Of a stretch of 64,000 bases of DNA, positions 4,501 to 62,424 are shown piece by piece. Origin of the DNA: a virus. Taxonomy: Duplodnaviria; Caudoviricetes. The DNA lies in IMG/VR virus record IMGVR_UViG_3300032135_000003, positions 66,948 to 130,947 of that record; one strand, 5' to 3'. The number at the start of each line of letters is the position of its first letter. Position 1 is the first letter of the stretch. The position numbers were made by a program, and so were the translations under genes. Below the pieces are notes generated by a model. It worked only from the letters and a program-made list of their open reading frames with translations, was not told the DNA's origin and made no database searches.

Positions 4501-7500
4501 AGAGTTAATAAGAGTATATTAGGAAAAGGTATTGCCTATGATATGTATGATTATGAGGAGAAAGTAACAGGAGATAAAGTACTTTTTTCAAACTTTCCAT
4601 TTAATGATTTAGGGGACAACAAACTATCTTACGCAGATGAGAAAAGAACATCTTTTATAAAACACCCTTATAAAGGAAACAGGAACAACAAATTTACATT
4701 TCATTCCCCAGAGTATGACTACTATGATTTAAACATAGGGGCAGAAACTAAAATAGAAGCCTTCCAATATGGAACTTCAAGAGGTAATTTTGTAGATGTT
4801 GAAGATCACCCAACTTGGGTAATATTAGGAGAACGAGCGTATAAAAAGGCTAAGGATTTAGCAATTTTAGAGTTTGCGTTAGAAACTGCAATACGTTTAG
4901 CCGAAAACTTAATACAAGCTTCTCAAAACTATTGGTTTATTGGAGGATTAGGTTCAACAGGAGGTAATCCTTGGGGAGCTATAGGGGCTACAGGGTTTGC
5001 CCTTGGGCTCTCAGGCTTTGAAGCATTGGTAAATGTAGTCCCTGTTGTAGGAAGATACAGGTATGAATGGTTAAAAATATTCAGAGATTTAGGACAACCA
5101 GAAAACTTTGCAACTCAGTATGTAGCAGAGGGATTTTATAACTATGCAGAACCTAACTATTGGTATGAAGGTGGAAGTAAAAGCTCCTTAGGAAACAGTC
5201 TTAGAGCAATTTCAACTGGAAAAGAATTAAAAGAAGGACGTTACACTTTTACGGAAAAAACAGGAGAACAACTTAAAGTTAACAACTTAGACAGGGAAAA
5301 AAGCTTACTCCTAACCTTTGGAAATGACTATTTATTAGAGTACCCCGCAGGGTATAAAACCTATGACAATGGAAATGAAGATTCTTATGGAAGCAGTAGG
5401 TCTATACAATCGGACAGTGGTGTTTGCATGGCTGGGAAAAGCCCTGAGATAAAGAAAAACATTGCTTCTCCATATATGAGCTTAAAGAACTACGTACCAT
5501 TTCAATATGGCTCTATCAGCTCTATTAAGTGGTTACAGGCTTCTAAAAGTGTTAATCTTGATGGGGACAATACTTGTTACAGTATTTTTGGAGGAGATAT
5601 ATTTATTTCAAGGTACACTTTAAAAAGGAAAGTACCTTTATTTACAGATACAGCCTTTGGACTTGCACCATTAACACCATATAACTATTATAGAAACAGT
5701 AATTTAGGATATACAAGATTTTACTGTAATTACGAGTTAGGAAATGAAAAAACTCTTGGAGATATCTTATTTCCTGATTTTGAAAGTGAGTATGTTTTTG
5801 ATTGTCAAACTGCATCTTCTGGGTCTTATGTGAAGCCGCCATCAAAAATGTACTTGAATTATTACGGGATTCCTAATTTCCTTGTAGAATCAGAACTTAA
5901 TTTAAATTTAAGGTATGGTAAGAAAGAACCAAGAAATAATTTTTATCCAGAAGTGGGAGACTTTGTTGACTGGACACAAGAAACTAATGTACCCATAAGA
6001 GAACCAAACAGACTCTATTACAATAATGTTTATTCTTCTACTGTATCAGAGGTTTCTTACAGGACTTTACCTGATTACTACTCTAAAGAAGAGTTTGACA
6101 TCTTATATGACTCACCTAATGGAGTGATATATTCCATGCAGGACACTTCTGAGAATGATTTAACTGATCCTTGGGCAATATTTAGACCGTTAGATTATTA
6201 CCAATTTCCATCTTCTTATGGAAAACTTTTGGACTTGAAAGGAATAGAGAGCGCACAGGTACTTGGAAGATTTGAAAACACTTCTGTTATCTTTAATGCT
6301 GTTAACCAATATAAAGATGCTCAGGACGCAGCTACAAGGGAGCTTGGAACAGGTGGTATATTTGCAGCCAGACCTATGGAGTTTAGTAATACCGAACTTG
6401 GGTATGGGGGAACAGGCACTTATCAAATTGTGAGTAATGAGTATGGGCATTTTTATCCCGATACAGACAGGGGACAGGTATTTCAAGCAGGAGCAAAAAG
6501 CCTGCAAGAGATATCTTCGATAGTTGGAGGTAAGGCAGTTGGAATGAAAGCTTGGTTTAAAGAGCATTTGCCTTTTAAAATTAAAAATTCTTTAGTTGAG
6601 AACTATGAATTTATAGATACAGATAATGCCTTGAATGGTATTGGTATAACAATGGGGTGGGACGCTAAATTTGATAGGGTTTTACTTACTAAAATTGATT
6701 ACATACCTTTACAGGAAATGTACTACTGTGGAAGTAAGTTCTTAGACTTTAGCTGCAACTCAATATCTTATTGTGAATACGTTAATAAAGAATTAACTAT
6801 TCAAAATTATTTAGATCAAGGGTATAGGTATTTAGAACAAGACTGCCAATTAATATTCCAAAAAGTAACAGAGAGTTGTACATACAGTTTTAATTTTTGC
6901 ACATTCCCTGATAAAGAAACAAAAGAACAAGTATTAATAAGTACAGGATTTAATTTTAGTAAACAAGTAGATTGTGTTTTAGAATATGAAAAAGTTGAGG
7001 AGATTTGTGATGAAAATTCAAAACAATCTGAGATACAAGCACTTTTAACCGCAGGGTATGTAGAAAGTAGTAGGGTTGAATGCGAAATAACTTACTCAAA
7101 AAGCACTGATACTTGTACTTTTGTAAATCAACAAACGCAAATAAATGCTTTGTTAGCAGATGGATACACTTATAAAGAGGACACAGACTGTAGAAAAGTC
7201 TTTGAAAAAGCAGATGTAATACCTGCACCACCAAGTAATATAGCCAATGACGACTTTGTAGAGGTAGCTCAGGGGCAATTAGTTTCTTTCAACGTTATTA
7301 CAAATGACGTAAGTGGAACAAGTCAAGCTCTTTCCATACATTCATTTACACAGCCTCTTTATGGAACACTAACTAAAGTAAATAGCACTACTTTCAGATA
7401 TACCCATAATGGGACAGATAATTTTGCAGACACTTTTAACTATACAGCCACAAATGACAATGGAGAAACAAACATAGCAACTGTATCTATCTCAATAAGT

Positions 7501-30381: not shown

Positions 30382-33300
30382 ATGAGTAAGTGTCAAGTAA
30401 AATATAATTCATTAGGTTCAATAGACTCTGTTTTAAACGAACAGGGGGAACCTTCTCAACTCTATGCAGATATAGCAAAGCATCCTTTTGTAGAAAGCAA
30501 GGAAAAAGCTTTGAATATCTATAAAAATATCTATACACAGAAAGTTGACGAAAACAGCTCTTTTATGCATAAAACCAAATATGGTTTCACTGATTCTTTA
30601 AAAGAGGCTTTGGATGAGTCTAACGAAGGAGATGTTATTGAAGTTGGGTTTTCAGGAAAAGACTTTGTTAAAATTATGTCAATTAATGTTAATACAGACC
30701 CAAACACAGTAGAAGGTTTTGTTAATTTACAAATAAAGAACGGGTTGTTATCTGAGGACAAAATTATTGATCCAGAGGGAACATTCTTTAAAGCTAAAGG
30801 GGAGTCTTCTCAGGCCAAAGCTATAAATACTGCTTTATTAGAGGAACAGTTAAAGCTTCACGTAGGTATTGGTGGTTACAAAAGACACAAAGGAAATAAA
30901 TATACCATTGACTCCATAAAACCCAAATACAATTATAGCCAAGGAACAATAGATGCTATTCTTTCAGAGGAACTTGCCAAGAGCTCTATGATGAGAACTT
31001 TTGGGAAAGACAAAATTGACGAGTCAGAGGGTTTAAATGAAGATGAACTTAAAATAAGACTACTAAATTTACTTAATTCTTTGGGTATAAAAGTTACTTC
31101 AATATCTGAATACATATCTAAATATAATGCAAAAAATGGGGTAGACCCATCAGCAAATGCACTTGCAGATATAGCAGGAAAAGTAATAGCTTTTCAAAAT
31201 GGTGAAATAGGGGTGGAGGACTTGACAGAAGAGGTATCTCACTTTATTGTAGAAGGATTTCCACAAGACCAAATTGAAAACTTACTTAGGAACATTCACA
31301 AAACAGATGAGTGGGTACAGTATTCTAAGAATTACCGAGAAGTATATGCAAAAGAGTACAATGGAGAGAATCTTGAACAAGCCGTAAGAAGGGAAGTACT
31401 TGGAAAAGTATTGGCAAACTCCTTACAAGCTAATTTTCAAACTGAAAAAGCTTTTGGAACTCAATTAAGTGTAATTGAAAAACTAAGGGATTTATTTAAC
31501 ACTCTTATGAAAAGGGTACAAGAGTTTCTAACACCACAACATTCTATAGATATAGCTACCTTTACAAAACAGGTAAAAGATTTATTGATGAAAGATGAGC
31601 TTAGTAACTACATCTCTCAGGATAATTTTGCTGCCAATAAATTTAGATTTTATAGCACCAATTCAACAGACAGTAATCCTATCAACCAAATAAGGAGTAG
31701 GGCTATTGCAGCTATTGAAGTTTTAAAAAGACAGATTGCCGATTTGTCAAAGACAAGTCAAGCATCAGGAGTAAGTAGACAACAGTTAAGACAGGCTCTT
31801 GATGATTTGGATAAAGAGTCAACCACACAATCTATAACTACTCTATTGGAAGTTACCAGAAAACAGATTGATTATATTCAAAACGCTTTAAAAAGCAACA
31901 GTAAAGATGAATTTGTATTAAGCCAGGAAGAAGTAGCTGTTTATGAGTCTTTAAAAAATGATTTAAACCCTATATTATCAGAGCTAAGAGAAAGAGTAAG
32001 AAGTAAACCAGCTACTACGGACAGAGCAGAGTGGAAAGCCATAGAAGATAGGCTTACCAGTGCTCTTGATAGTATAAATAAGATTGAGGGTATAGAGAAG
32101 TCAAATACTTCTGAGGTCTTGGATAAACTGGTTGATAAAGTTATTGAAAGACATAATCTTGATCCTGTAAAATATAAAGACTACATTAAAACTTGGTTTG
32201 AAACAGCTAAGTCTGATACCTCTTATTTTCACGCCACTTTCGGTCAAATGATTCATGCACAAGACCCTTTATTATCTCTTGCGGGAGTAGTAATTCAGGA
32301 TACTATGAATGAGGCACGTATTAAGTATTTAAAATATACCAAAGAGTTTCAAAAGGAGCTTAAGGATTTAAATATCAAGGAAAAAGACTTAGACCAGTTT
32401 TTTGATAATGGATTTTTAACAGATGCTGTAGACCACCACAAATTTCAAGAAGATATTCTTACTATAAGAATGAAAGCTTTAAAGGAAGTAACTAAAACTG
32501 ACCTCACCATAGAGGAGTTAATTAGAAGAAGTAAATCTCCTTCCCGTGAAGCAAAAGATTCATTACCTGAAGTAAGCCCCTCACAGGAAGCAGAATTGAA
32601 TAAAACTGTTAGTGAAGAGCAAAATAAAATAACCGAGAGGGTTATGCTAGATAAGTACTATACTGAGAAAGAGAAAAAGTACAAAACAGCAGGCGTTAGC
32701 CCAATTACAATAAGTACTTTAAGGGCAATTAGCCAAACTCGTGGAAGTATTTTACAGAATGCCAGAAGATCAGACGGTATTGTAGATAGGACTCTTTTAT
32801 CAGATAGTGATAATAAAAGGCTGGATGAACTTGGAAGGGATAGAAAGCTACAAAAAAATCCCTATGACACCTCAGGAAAACTAAAGAAAGGTCTTATACC
32901 TAACCCAGATGCCAGTGAAGATTACGCTCCTGCTTTTATCTTAGACCCTAAAGAGAAACAACCTTCAAATGAAGCAGTAATATCAGCAGACTTGCAAAAT
33001 TTGGACTCTACTTATATGAAAGAGGAGGCAGCAAAAGCAGAAAAAGAGGGGAGAAAAATAAAGTCTATACCACAAACTTTTTTCAATGATTTAGAAGCAG
33101 CACAAGCTGAGAGTCATGAGGCAGCATTAAACTTTTTAAGACTTAATGCAAATATGTCTTTTACTCCTGAATTTTGGGACTCTTTTGGAGAAAATATGTC
33201 TGTAAATGACAGGTTAGAGGAAGTTATACAAGAAGGTGATCCAGAAATTAGTAGGGAAGCATCTAAGGTACAGTCTAGTATTAAAGACCTCTCTAGTAGG

Positions 33301-59702: not shown

Positions 59703-60070
59703 TATATTGTAATTAAGGTTTTAACTTCTAAAATTATATCTGTGAATTGCCGTCTATCTAGTTTTAAATACTGTCCGTAAGCAGTGTCATAAACTTTTAA
59801 ACCCTGTATTTCTATCTCTCTGGACAACATAGCAAACTCTTCTGGGTGACAGTTATCAGCAGCTGTATAAGTACCCTTTTCCTCAATAAGTAGATTAAAC
59901 TGGATATCAAAATCAGGGAGACTAATTATTTCCTCTTGATCGTATCTATAAATTTCTACATCTTCTTCCCAGTCATATTCAGTTACCATGGGGTAAATTC
60001 TCTCCTCTGTTATACTTAACTGATCTGAGAATCTGTCAATTTGTTTTTGCATGTACGTTATATTCTGCAT
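59702..60070 (-). CDS. Hypothetical protein
   Basis: Coupled ORF. Confidence 0.55.
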   Translation of the reverse strand: MQNITYMQKQIDRFSDQLSITEERIYPMVTEYDWEEDVEIYRYDQEEIISLPDFDIQFNLLIEEKGTYTAADNCHPEEFAMLSREIEIQGLKVYDTAYGQYLKLDRRQFTDIILEVKTLITI

Positions 60071-60072
60071 AG

Positions 60073-60798
60073 TTATAAATTTTTGTTAATCCATTTATCA
60101 AATCCATTCCAATCAGTCCCAAACTTTTCATTAAACATACTTTTACATAGTTTAATCACTTCTTCTCTACTATAATTATTTTTAATAGAATGAATTGTAA
60201 CAGTATTGTGTGAATCTACTTTTGGTACCTGTAAACAAATACAATCTAAATTTTCACAATTGTCTCCATTACAGTTATTAATACATTTACTATAAACATA
60301 TTCAATCAGCACTTCGTCAATACCCCCTTCTTTACAGTACTTCTCAATAAATGCTTGAGATGGTTGAGGTAAATAAATATTACTACTATTATCTTGCGTA
60401 GGGTGTATGTCTTTTGATGTTCCAATTATTAATTTGTCCGTAGTAACTACTATTTTTCTTGAATCTTTTAAAAACACTGTATCTTCATACGCTAAACCTT
60501 TAACATTTAAAGTAGTTTTAGTTTTAGCTAATTTTAAAGAATTAACTTTACATAATCTAGGTTTTTTATCTTTATCTTCTGTATGTGAAGTTATAATATA
60601 GTCACCTTCTTTAATATCTTCATCTATTGTGAAGTATAGGTGTTGAGGTATATACCCTCTCTCTTCAATTTTATCTATAGTGCCATCATCTAATACTAAA
60701 GGATTTCCGTGTTTAGGTGTAAATTTATGCTTATTCATAAGTATTTGAGTTCTACTTTCTGTAGGTAACATAATTACCTTTGATCTTTTATCTGCCAT
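60073..60798 (-). CDS. Hypothetical protein (flavobacterial phage type)
   Basis: VIMLPT...QHLY...IKEGD...KIVVTTD...PQPSQAFIEKY...YSREEV. Confidence 0.65.
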   Translation of the reverse strand: MADKRSKVIMLPTESRTQILMNKHKFTPKHGNPLVLDDGTIDKIEERGYIPQHLYFTIDEDIKEGDYIITSHTEDKDKKPRLCKVNSLKLAKTKTTLNVKGLAYEDTVFLKDSRKIVVTTDKLIIGTSKDIHPTQDNSSNIYLPQPSQAFIEKYCKEGGIDEVLIEYVYSKCINNCNGDNCENLDCICLQVPKVDSHNTVTIHSIKNNYSREEVIKLCKSMFNEKFGTDWNGFDKWINKNL

Positions 60799-60822
60799 TT
60801 TTGTTTAGATTTAAGATTAAAA

Positions 60823-61068
60823 AGTTCTTTGCCCAAATTTCAGTTATGGGATAAGTTCAATGATTTCTCCGATGGTAGTTGCCTACTGACCTTATCTGAA
60901 TCTTCGTTCAATCTTACTTACATAAAAATAAACACAACTGATAACTGATACAGTTTATAATATTGCCCTTATAAGTATCCCCATAATTTGGTTTAAGTCC
61001 CGAAGGCTTAATAGAACATTGATTACTTCGTTTATAAGGTATTACTGTTTATTTTAAATCAAAGAACT
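60823..61068 (-). ncRNA. Candidate structured RNA module C (~245 nt, pseudoknotted)
   Basis: Closing stem AGTTCTTTG/CAAAGAACT; AAAATAAACA/TGTTTATTTT; CCTTATAA/TTATAAGG; cUUCGg and GCAA tetraloops readable only on the minus strand; crossing pairs CCAAATT/AATTTGG, TTATGGG/CCCATAA and TCAATG/CATTGA. Confidence 0.65.
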
Positions 61069-61083
61069 GATTAAATTTTTAGT

Positions 61084-61349
61084 ATGGCGCAAGGGGCTTG
61101 AACCCTATACATTCCCCATATAGAGTCTAAGCTCTCTTATAAGGTTATCCCAGTTATTATTAGTATATCAATTAGACTAAGATGAACTAATATACCTCAA
61201 AATGCACCATCCGTTACTTTTCACGGTCAGCCAGTCTTATCGTTATTTACGGGCTAATATGCTCTCTCCCTGTTTTCTCACCCGAACTGCATTTCTGATA
61301 ACGACAATCTACTATAGCGACAACTATAGATTCATTTTAAGAAACAGGG
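61084..61349 (-). ncRNA. Candidate structured RNA module B (~265 nt) with a 3' tRNA-like acceptor/T-arm
   Basis: CCCTGTTT/AAACAGGG stem with pseudoknots TCGTTAT/ATAACGA and CGGG/CCCG; ATGGTGCA/TGCGCCAT 8-bp stem next to AGGG-TTCAAGC-CCCT T-arm. Confidence 0.65.
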
Positions 61350-61361
61350 TTATTTCGTAAT

Positions 61362-61585
61362 AAAAAATTACCCGTCTTCCAATTAGAATATACAATATTT
61401 ACAGAGTCTTCGTGATGCACGAGGTAGAATTCAAGTTCTACTATACTGTTTGTATATCTTACAACAACATAAACCTTTTCTTGGATAAAGGTTGTAATAT
61501 TTTCCCTTAACCATTTTTTAGGACAAATCAGTAATTCAATGTCTATAGGTTAATAGTATTACTGTTGTTTGTAAGCGGGTAATTT
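61362..61585 (-). ncRNA. Candidate structured RNA module A (~220 nt)
   Basis: 10-bp closing stem AAATTACCCG/CGGGTAATTT then a U-run; internal CAGTAAT/ATTACTG, TTACAAC/GTTGTAA, AACCTTT/AAAGGTT, ATATACAA/TTGTATAT, GTAGAA/TTCTAC and TCGTG/CACGA. Confidence 0.6.
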
Positions 61586-61595
61586 ATTTCTTCTA

Positions 61596-61603
61596 CAAAT
61601 ATA
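61596..61603 (-). promoter_or_regulatory. -7 promoter element TATATTTG upstream of the ncRNA cluster
   Basis: CAAATATA on the plus strand, ~10 nt upstream of the module A 5' stem. Confidence 0.7.
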
Positions 61604-61817
61604 CAATAATTATTTGGAACTCTAACTACAATACAGTGTTAAATTTTTGCTTTAGTGAATTTTTTTTCAAACTCTGATTTAACTCTTACAAACCTCTTTC
61701 CCGCTTCATTTTGGTATAGAACTACTATCTCTTCTCTACCATTTGTGGCATCTATTACATTCCAGTCAGTAACATAATAGGCGGTTTTGTTCTTGTTATT
61801 CACGTAAATTTCTTGCA

Positions 61818-62201
61818 TTATGTTAGTTTTAGTGCCTTTTGTAATCCAACTTCTAGTGTATTTTCAAATACTCCAGTTATATGATTTTCAGATGTAACTT
61901 TTATTATTATTACATTTCCTATTTGATTTCTATTTTTATGAATAAAAACACCATAAGAATCTGCAAATAGGACATCTATTGATATATCTACATTATGTTC
62001 TTCTCGCAACCATTTTTGAAGTAGCGATTGAGTAGGTGCAGAATAATATCCTTTAGCCCAATTACTACCGTTCATATTACATAATTCATCACTAATATCG
62101 GTTAATCCATAGTTAGGGTGGTAATAATCTCTAACCTCTAAATCAAATCCTTTTTCCTTGGCTAATTTAGCTGTTTCAAATGTGATTAATTCTTCTTTCA
62201 T
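61818..62201 (-). CDS. Hypothetical protein (MKEELITFETAKLAKEKGF family)
   Basis: SAPTQSLLQKWLRE...GLQKALK pattern common in Bacteroidota phages. Confidence 0.7.
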   Translation of the reverse strand: MKEELITFETAKLAKEKGFDLEVRDYYHPNYGLTDISDELCNMNGSNWAKGYYSAPTQSLLQKWLREEHNVDISIDVLFADSYGVFIHKNRNQIGNVIIIKVTSENHITGVFENTLEVGLQKALKLT

Positions 62202-62424
62202 TTCTACTTGCTTTTAAACCTGTTAAAAAACCTCTGTTATATATAACTGTTACTGTAGTATCTTTTAGTCTTGGAAGTGGCGCAATTGGTAAAATAGGGG
62301 AAAGACAAAACTCTACATCATAGCAATAACCGTCTTTATAACCTTCTCCCCAGATTGTATCAAAATCTAATTGACTAAAGCTGAGGCTAATTAATATTCC
62401 TAGTGTTATTAATAATTTTTTCAT
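62176..62424 (-). CDS. Small secreted protein
   Basis: N-terminal signal peptide MKKLLITLGILISLSFS. Confidence 0.55.
   Translation of the reverse strand: MKKLLITLGILISLSFSQLDFDTIWGEGYKDGYCYDVEFCLSPILPIAPLPRLKDTTVTVIYNRGFLTGLKASRNERRINHI

Follow-up and report, generated by a model that had tools for sequence, protein, structure and literature searches.

The RNA region

The sequence considered here is a 64,000-nt window (the whole stretch of DNA that was analysed) from a virus of the class Caudoviricetes. It represents the right half of the 130,947-bp IMG/VR record IMGVR_UViG_3300032135_000003, a record which is 86% complete. Our subject is a non-coding region at positions 60823-61603, read on the minus strand, which comprises three blocks, termed modules A, B, and C, and which precedes a gene for a protein of 241 amino acids (aa). 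The 3′-half of module B is a tRNA-like domain that covaries over four phages, and the locus as a whole is most likely a chain of small folded RNA units, not one giant fold.

A first-pass annotation of this DNA, made from the sequence alone, had described some 770 nt lacking any sizeable open reading frame (ORF) and starting right after a TAnnTTTG promoter box on the minus strand. Both observations are borne out. Between a 59-aa ORF at 61639-61818(-) and the 241-aa ORF at 60073-60798(-), positions 60799-61638 hold no minus-strand ORF of at least 30 aa, and at approximately 0.8 kb this is the largest non-coding gap of the window. With a 45-aa threshold, only three ORF-free gaps of at least 200 nt are found in the 64 kb, two of which are the RNA region, since a spurious plus-strand ORF of 52 aa splits it in the count; in the near-identical strain L082, a natural deletion of 2 nt throws this ORF out of frame. 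The box, revealed by pattern scan, is of the Bacteroidota −7 type (TATATTTG, 61603-61596, minus strand). Only five TAnnTTTG boxes occur on the minus strand between positions 60000 and 64000, and TATATTTG sits in an intergenic spacer; it is a putative promoter, from which transcription would start near 61590. A consensus terminator scan of 60799-61638 gave no GC-rich hairpin followed by a U run; only long-range helices abut U runs.

Folding of the 781 nt with RNAfold, judged against shuffled controls, gave a z-score of -3.18 for the minus strand versus -1.57 for the plus strand. The scores of the individual modules are -3.67 (A), -2.14 (B), and -1.45 (C); that is, the claim that the minus strand folds better than shuffled sequence holds for the whole region and for modules A and B, and fails for module C taken alone. 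The proposed division into three blocks agrees with the predicted structure, in that the borders coincide with terminal helices of 10 bp in module A and 9 bp in module C. The core hairpins of module C are capped by a UUCG loop (61004-61001) and a GCAA loop (60882-60879), both present, as had been stated, in the minus-strand sequence. Modules A and C have the 11-mer AACAGTAATAC in common, and these are its sole two occurrences in the genome; the looser pattern AAACAGTAAW is not enriched in the window.

The further interpretation, that the minus strand encodes phage non-coding RNA of no assignable known family, is likewise supported. A Rfam search of the whole 64-kb window claims no family at the gathering score, and with a cutoff of E = 10 the RNA region shows only chance-level matches (E >3). 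ARAGORN called nothing in the window, and none of 50,697 phage records matched the RNA region in a BLAST search.

Seven assemblies from different samples (L009-L015) are 100% identical to the region over the part that they cover, five of them spanning the whole gap and two only its downstream half; being identical, they carry no covariation information. When L009:1-2160 is compared with window positions 61819-62424, the RNA region and the downstream genes are 100% identical and the upstream genes are different, among them an HNH endonuclease. Because this variant phage shares the RNA region and downstream genes but not the upstream genes, the locus is a mosaic boundary.

The tRNA-like domain

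The tRNA-like domain occupies 128 nt (61083-61210, minus strand) and has homologues in three other phages. Its acceptor helix pairs AUGGUGC(A) with (U)GCGCCAU, giving 7 bp, or 8 bp when the A:U pair is counted. A 4-bp T stem carrying the T-loop UUCAAGC abuts this helix, and together they form a 12-bp minihelix as in tRNA. The 3′-end consists of a discriminator A followed by CUA, and CCA is not encoded. The domain also holds a variable hairpin (H1), the conserved strings AAUAAU and GGGAUAACC, and a pseudoknot with hairpin H3.

The first homologue, L025:2529-2668, was recognized as a local match. A covariance model (R1) was built from the window and L025 pair, and this model together with pattern scans covering IMG/VR and the JGI metagenomes yielded L094:7485-7600 and L105:3029-3143. 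From the 5′-end of the acceptor to the discriminator the homologues measure approximately 107-131 nt, and the neighbouring proteins of the four phages are, where known, some 38% identical (L025: 38%). The alignment comprises four homologues only; 97.6% of its cells are paired, and 11 of the 23 pairs have changed on both sides. None of 500 shuffles was as good, and slid partners pair at 39-61%. The covariation test proposed in the first-pass annotation thus gives a strong result for the tRNA-like domain over four phages; among about 70 related loci, no homologues with which to apply it were found for module A, the 5′-half of module B, or module C.

Pseudoknots had also been proposed for module B and, as putative crossing pairings, for module C. 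The 7-nt kissing pair seen in module B of this phage is not conserved; a different pseudoknot beside the T arm, in which a conserved ACC string forms four pairs with the loop of the hairpin preceding that arm, does covary. The first internal hairpin spans 33 nt at its largest and is reduced in L094 and L105 to a stem of 3 bp capped by a 4-nt loop (GUAA/GAAA); the family therefore possesses no anticodon arm, and the 7-nt kissing pair is no family feature. Invariant in all four homologues are a U5.G68 wobble, UGCAU after the acceptor, AAUAAU, GGGRUAACC, and GGAA in the pseudoknot loop.

L094 is a 102-kb phage whose tRNA-like element lies in inverted terminal repeats; on its contig (G001) the domain is therein found twice with boxA-led neighbours, at 7218-7333 and 94669-94784. 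Two sets of candidates were rejected. The match of the first tRNA-like pattern in L032, a 2.3-kb IMG/VR contig, was discarded as its sequence is unlike the family, and model R2 scored 18-22 bits in L108, L016, and L003 on what are probably not family members but odd tRNAs or the tRNA-like domain (TLD) of transfer-messenger RNA (tmRNA).

Relationship to tRNA and tmRNA

By the defining tests the domain is neither a tRNA nor a tmRNA. An acceptor on a T arm with a T-loop of the form U-U-C-R-A is present, as 8 + 4 bp which covary over the four phages. A cloverleaf with D arm and 7-nt anticodon loop is absent, there is no match to RF00005 in the region at E up to 10, and ARAGORN calls no tRNA there. 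A G3:U70 pair is never found: one sequence has G:C at position 3:70 and the other three have C:G, the sole conserved wobble being U5.G68. The tmRNA models RF00023 and RF04321, as well as ARAGORN, leave the domain unmatched, and the best RF04321 score in the genome (8.4 bits) lies elsewhere. No match was obtained when the domains of L094 and L105 were compared with Rfam; the tRNA-like family is absent from that database. A frame scan for a tmRNA tag ending in a hydrophobic or Ala-Ala degron plus stop found none in the window, L025, or L105. It gave one unrelated 63-aa frame in L094 and recovered the tag of the L003 tmRNA, which served as control.

These results bear upon the proposal that the domain is a minimal tmRNA, which would enter stalled ribosomes with SmpB and perhaps encode a very short tag. 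Its build is tmRNA-like, with an acceptor and T arm and no anticodon arm, and in a relative (L003/L026) the syntenic position, directly upstream of the homologue of the 241-aa gene, is taken by a genuine permuted tmRNA (RF04321, 60.3 bits; also called by ARAGORN). By eye, in each of the four sequences an A-rich string is followed by the conserved GGG RUA ACC and, within 3-7 codons, by a stop in the same frame, an observation that we rate low; these putative tags share no common C-terminal degron, and no frame ends in Ala/Val-Ala in the manner of real phage tags, although the control tmRNA was recovered. With position 3:70 never G.U and both the Rfam tmRNA models and ARAGORN negative, we regard a minimal tmRNA as decidedly unlikely.

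Alternatively, the domain could act in trans as a decoy for a host tRNA-cleaving defence nuclease, a modification enzyme, or a synthetase, with modules A and C as further decoys or scaffolds. Roles of this kind, as decoy, sponge, or scaffold, had been suggested in the first-pass annotation. The conserved single strands (UGCAUY.UGAG, AAUAAU, GGGRUAACC) and the invariant U5.G68 look like a protein-binding surface, beyond what processing punctuation would call for, and the genome contains a second, alanine-type tRNA mimic besides six ordinary tRNAs. No partner protein was found; the genome, at 86% completeness, shows no gene for TROVE/Rsr, reverse transcriptase, or a CCA enzyme. A decoy role for the tRNA mimic is possible and would be compatible with the stable-RNA operon considered below; as an explanation of the locus we deem it unlikely. 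Two further identities gave negative results at the same completeness. For YrlA and bacterial Y RNAs there is neither a Rfam match in the region nor a TROVE/Rsr gene in the genome, and for a retron modules A and C offer inverted repeats, but the genome has no RVT_1 match.

The second mimic lies at G000:C1:27208-27340(-) (L024:1500-1640(-)). It possesses an acceptor of GGGGAGG/CCUCUCC with G3.U70, A73, a D arm, and a T arm; a 5-bp stem closes a 9-nt loop containing UGC, after which come approximately 60 AT-rich nt. With a Rfam tRNA score of 15.3 bits, it looks like an alanine-type mini-tmRNA or a derivative of tRNA-Ala. Unusual elements are also seen in two of the related phages. Another T arm (GCAAG/CUUGC, loop UUCGAUU) is found at L025:1982-2385, within the 1.6-kb ORF-free gap of that phage; the 3′-strand of its acceptor finds a 6/7 partner 52 nt upstream and a perfect 7-bp partner 376 nt upstream, the latter pairing giving a candidate of tmRNA size; no tool calls it. 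At L105:3493-3566, Rfam recognizes a tRNA (44.6 bits) in which the loop on the anticodon stem has only about 5 nt and to which ARAGORN gives a 2-nt anticodon; a boxA-like string follows directly on its 3′-side.

Module C and the boxA-like element

Module C (60823-61068, minus strand) consists of a boxA-like element, a variable core, a conserved 3′-hairpin (60850-60832), the boxA complement (60831-60823), and a U run. Its 9-bp closing helix joins 61068-61060 with 60831-60823, and the module ends 24 nt upstream of the ATG of the 241-aa gene. The element at its 5′-end, GTTCTTTGA (61059-61067, minus strand), matches a motif of rRNA leaders, taken here as the regions upstream of 16S 5′-ends in genomes of Flavobacteriales and other Bacteroidota. 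The exact 9-mer is present at -65 to -140 of 16S in 46 of 76 such leaders; the core GYTCTTT occurs within 450 nt upstream of 16S at 54 of 75 loci, and in antisense at seven of 75. For gamma-proteobacteria, the consensus GYTCTTTAANA has been published (PMC5725501). Because the same 9-mer is found in 46 of the 76 leaders, GTTCTTTGA appears to be a boxA of the host rRNA-leader type, presumably with Nus function. It stands in sense orientation, 3′ of the −7 box and 5′ of the genes, a position that fits a boxA role in the presumed transcript. The 131-kb genome contains three copies, all on the minus strand, and two of the three open the two C-type modules. Across 64 related phage loci the motif shows no general enrichment (31 sense versus 63 antisense matches). 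A processing stem in the style of rRNA was considered for module C and dropped, as a boxA complement downstream of 16S was found at none of 30 host loci.

A self-search of the genome revealed the paralogue, a shorter copy situated approximately 95 kb away on the minus strand (L002:1358-1532, equivalent to G000:C1 ~33020-33192), where it precedes another operon. It has the same first ~45 nt and last ~40 nt as module C and a different core. The loop of the 3′-hairpin is kept, its stem has one compensatory change (C-G to U-A), and in the closing helix a G-C has become G-U. Both C-type modules end 24-27 nt before the ATG of a gene on the same strand. Exact-end patterns of module C returned nothing from IMG/VR. 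Three consecutive modules of L094 also open with the shared 5′-end, AGTTCTTTGA, which occurs in L105 at least once (3303), with two looser matches at module borders; these L094 and L105 copies lie 3-14 nt after tRNA-like 3′-ends. A third copy of the 17-nt string at the end of module C, GGGCAAAGAACTTTTTA, is located at L002:1697-1714(-), at the 3′-end of a 77-aa ORF, with the following ATG some 25 nt further on.

Module A and the 5′-half of module B

Module A (61365-61585, minus strand) is a multi-branch RNA of about 220 nt, for which none of 200 shuffles was as stable. A 10-bp terminal helix (61585-61576 with 61374-61365) closes it, and a U6 run (61367-61362) marks its end. The evidence that module A may be a structured RNA consists only of its folding energy and this end-to-end helix followed by U6.

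The 5′-domain of module B (61211-61349, minus strand) is predicted to form a 12-bp closing helix round a branched fold, followed by two hairpins; a degenerate boxA-like string (61344-61334) opens the module. Strain L082 differs by three substitutions and one 2-nt deletion, all within this domain. Two of the substitutions fall at predicted pairs and create G.U, and the remaining changes are in loops or in a GA-repeat linker. The G.U changes would keep the predicted pairs only in minus-strand RNA, and beyond folding energy this variant is the only evidence suggesting that the 5′-half of module B acts as RNA. Four independent Logan contigs (L012, L013, L083, and L084) all start at window position 61226, inside this half; the shared start falls where the L082 variants cluster, which suggests strain heterogeneity or a recombination patch.

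One might suppose that most of the region is debris, that is, decayed tRNA or tmRNA genes and small inverted-repeat elements (module C and its paralogue) inserted between genes, and that the tRNA-like domain alone is functional. Modules A and C and the 5′-half of B are lineage-specific, module C is thermodynamically ordinary, and homing-endonuclease genes are found at the same place in variants and relatives. Module C furthermore has terminal inverted repeats of 9-10 bp and short flanking direct repeats (TTTAATC; ACTAA), as would a miniature inverted-repeat transposable element (MITE). The flanking repeats, however, differ in length and offset, which is unlike target duplications, and the two copies of module C share their ends and not their interior, unlike copies of a MITE. 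The left ‘repeat’ is moreover the host-type boxA in sense orientation, and ACTAA is part of a motif conserved in other phages. Module A is strongly structured, and seven assemblies, obtained from different samples, show no difference over the stretch that they cover (100% identity). We therefore consider debris quite unlikely.

The downstream gene and its relatives

The 241-aa gene (60073-60798, minus strand) was assigned to phrog_15656 by a PHROG match and is the first of the operon led by module C. Its relatives, at most 45% identical, come from phages of Cellulophaga and Bacteroides and from numerous contigs of marine metagenomes. The protein has neither a Pfam match nor a PDB sequence match, and its AlphaFold model gave no PDB fold match at E <=0.001; the model is confident (predicted local distance difference test, pLDDT, 84), β-rich, and has two C-terminal helices.

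In addition to the permuted tmRNA of L003/L026, tmRNAs are found no more than 3.5 kb from the phrog_15656 homologue in L037 (phage phi14:2), L059, L062, L064, and L066, and tRNAs or whole tRNA arrays stand directly upstream of it in L033, L057, L073, and L075. L004 and L025 have ORF-free gaps of 0.7-1.6 kb at the same place, without a recognized RNA. Because the phrog_15656 genes of relatives repeatedly adjoin tRNA or tmRNA genes, the RNA region appears to occupy the stable-RNA slot of this phage group. A conserved non-coding block of ~95 nt lies at the start of the gap in L003 (2786-2910) and L004 (3155-3235); it is 81-93% identical, ends in AACAAACAGTAAA, and may be another small RNA.

A putative stable-RNA operon

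The annotation had left open one RNA of about 770 nt, and had drawn a comparison with GOLLD and ROOL. This expectation was disappointed. The region does have one recognizable promoter, no strong internal terminator, and a z-score of -3.18 over the whole stretch, all of which would suit a single large structured RNA. No Rfam match appears even at E = 10, and the minimum-energy fold of the whole region leaves the three blocks as separate domains. The tRNA-like domain is found in other phages without A or C, and module C elsewhere in the genome without A or B. A single large RNA akin to GOLLD or ROOL is, in our judgement, highly improbable, and because the parts are conserved or duplicated independently and the blocks fold separately, a chain of small units is the most likely arrangement.

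For the function of this chain we propose a phage stable-RNA operon, with the tRNA-like domain as processing punctuation and with Nus-dependent anti-termination, an interpretation to which we attach about an even chance. It would be the counterpart of the tRNA and tmRNA clusters beside the same gene in related phages. One early promoter (61603-61596) would give rise to an untranslated transcript of some 800 nt, spanning the three modules and extending into the phrog_15656 operon. With a single recognizable promoter, and no canonical terminator within the region, the simplest reading is that the modules are transcribed together and then processed. A 12-bp acceptor/T minihelix is the substrate shape for RNase P on the 5′-side and for RNase Z and the CCA-adding enzyme on the 3′-side. 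RNase P and RNase Z would thus cut at the tRNA-like minihelix and CCA would be added; such processing would probably set the RNA ends, freeing a stable tRNA mimic and the flanking RNAs. The mature RNAs may, in addition, act in trans.

In rRNA operons and at the nut sites of phage lambda, Nus factors render RNA polymerase resistant to Rho on RNA that is free of ribosomes. In a like manner the boxA of module C may load NusB-S10 and other Nus factors onto the polymerase, which would then be able to reach the downstream genes, its long, structured, and untranslated transcript being shielded from Rho. The second C-type copy would do likewise before its own operon. By its sequence and placement, module C resembles a leader that acts in cis in anti-termination more than it resembles a decoy or sponge. 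That the boxA complement and U run at its 3′-end constitute a Nus-sensitive switch is speculation.

Several observations weigh against the proposed operon. The terminal helix and U6 of module A might halt transcription before B and C, neither of which has a recognizable promoter of its own. Pairing of the module C boxA with its own complement, as predicted, would make it inaccessible to NusB-S10. The 9-mer is present three times in 262 kb, about three times the uniform expectation, and the boxA argument rests on positions. The boxA-like string before module B has a swap at core positions and is not counted as a boxA; mutation of the same core positions abolished function in E. coli (PMC5725501). 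At the L025 locus, the tRNA-like domain occurs without a boxA. Module C by itself folds no better than chance, and searches of about 70 related loci with nhmmer and BLAST gave no homologues of module A, the 5′-half of module B, or module C.

A broader proposal combines both roles. Some Bacteroidota phages may carry repeated units that resemble rRNA operons in miniature, each made of a host boxA, a freely evolving structured RNA, and an anticodon-less tRNA-like domain. The mimic, with a conserved protein-binding face made up of U5.G68, the UGCAU and GGGRUAACC strings, and the pseudoknot, would act in trans on a host protein concerned with tRNA handling or defence, and boxA together with its complement would serve as a Nus-dependent read-through switch into the early operon. 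We put this forward tentatively, thinking it unlikely to hold in full.

Phage tRNA genes are well known; to our knowledge, the same is not true of anticodon-less tRNA mimics and the unannotated RNAs that surround them. Such RNAs escape standard annotation, ARAGORN and Rfam both being silent here, and the locus now provides a small, covarying family of tRNA-like RNAs which can be searched for by covariance model. Its sequence also points to an rRNA boxA of the host type in a lytic-type phage of Bacteroidota (marine, flavobacterial-type), placed where protection from Rho would be possible. If the proposed operon is real, the hijacking of Nus factors, the classic lambda mechanism, would extend to a distant group of phages and hosts, and this would explain how phages can afford long islands of non-coding RNA.

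Comparison with known systems

GOLLD and ROOL resemble the present locus in being ornate phage RNAs near tRNA-type genes; they differ in that no covariance model matches here and the units do not exceed 300 nt. A tRNA-shaped module within a longer non-coding RNA, recognized by tRNA-processing enzymes, is known from mascRNA at the 3′-end of MALAT1 and from the bacterial YrlA/Y RNAs. The embedded module is the common feature, whereas the phage has no Rsr/TROVE gene and no Rfam YrlA match, and processing is presumed in its case. Phage T4 encodes species 1 and 2 (rnaC and rnaD), small stable RNAs of unknown function which lie in the tRNA cluster and are co-processed with tRNAs. The present RNAs, if they are stable, resemble these as small phage RNAs at a tRNA-type locus and differ in the phylum of the host.

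The TLD of tmRNA, including the permuted form RF04321 and TLD-only forms, is similar in its acceptor on a T arm, canonical T-loop, lack of an anticodon arm, nearby pseudoknot, and, in a relative, identical locus. The phage domain differs in having no G3:U70, tag frame, 5′/3′ split, or model match, and is closed on itself.

For module C the closest parallels are the boxA of rRNA leaders and the nut sites of lambda. No N-like protein or boxB is evident here, and behind the phage motif come approximately 230 nt of structured RNA and then the complement of the motif, features absent from lambda and the rRNA leaders. In both cases, as in the presumed phage transcript, a short boxA in sense orientation lies early in an untranslated or leader transcript, and the identity with the Flavobacteriales leaders extends over 9 nt. 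Lambda nutL and nutR each precede an operon, and the two C-type modules of this phage are likewise two copies, each ahead of an operon.

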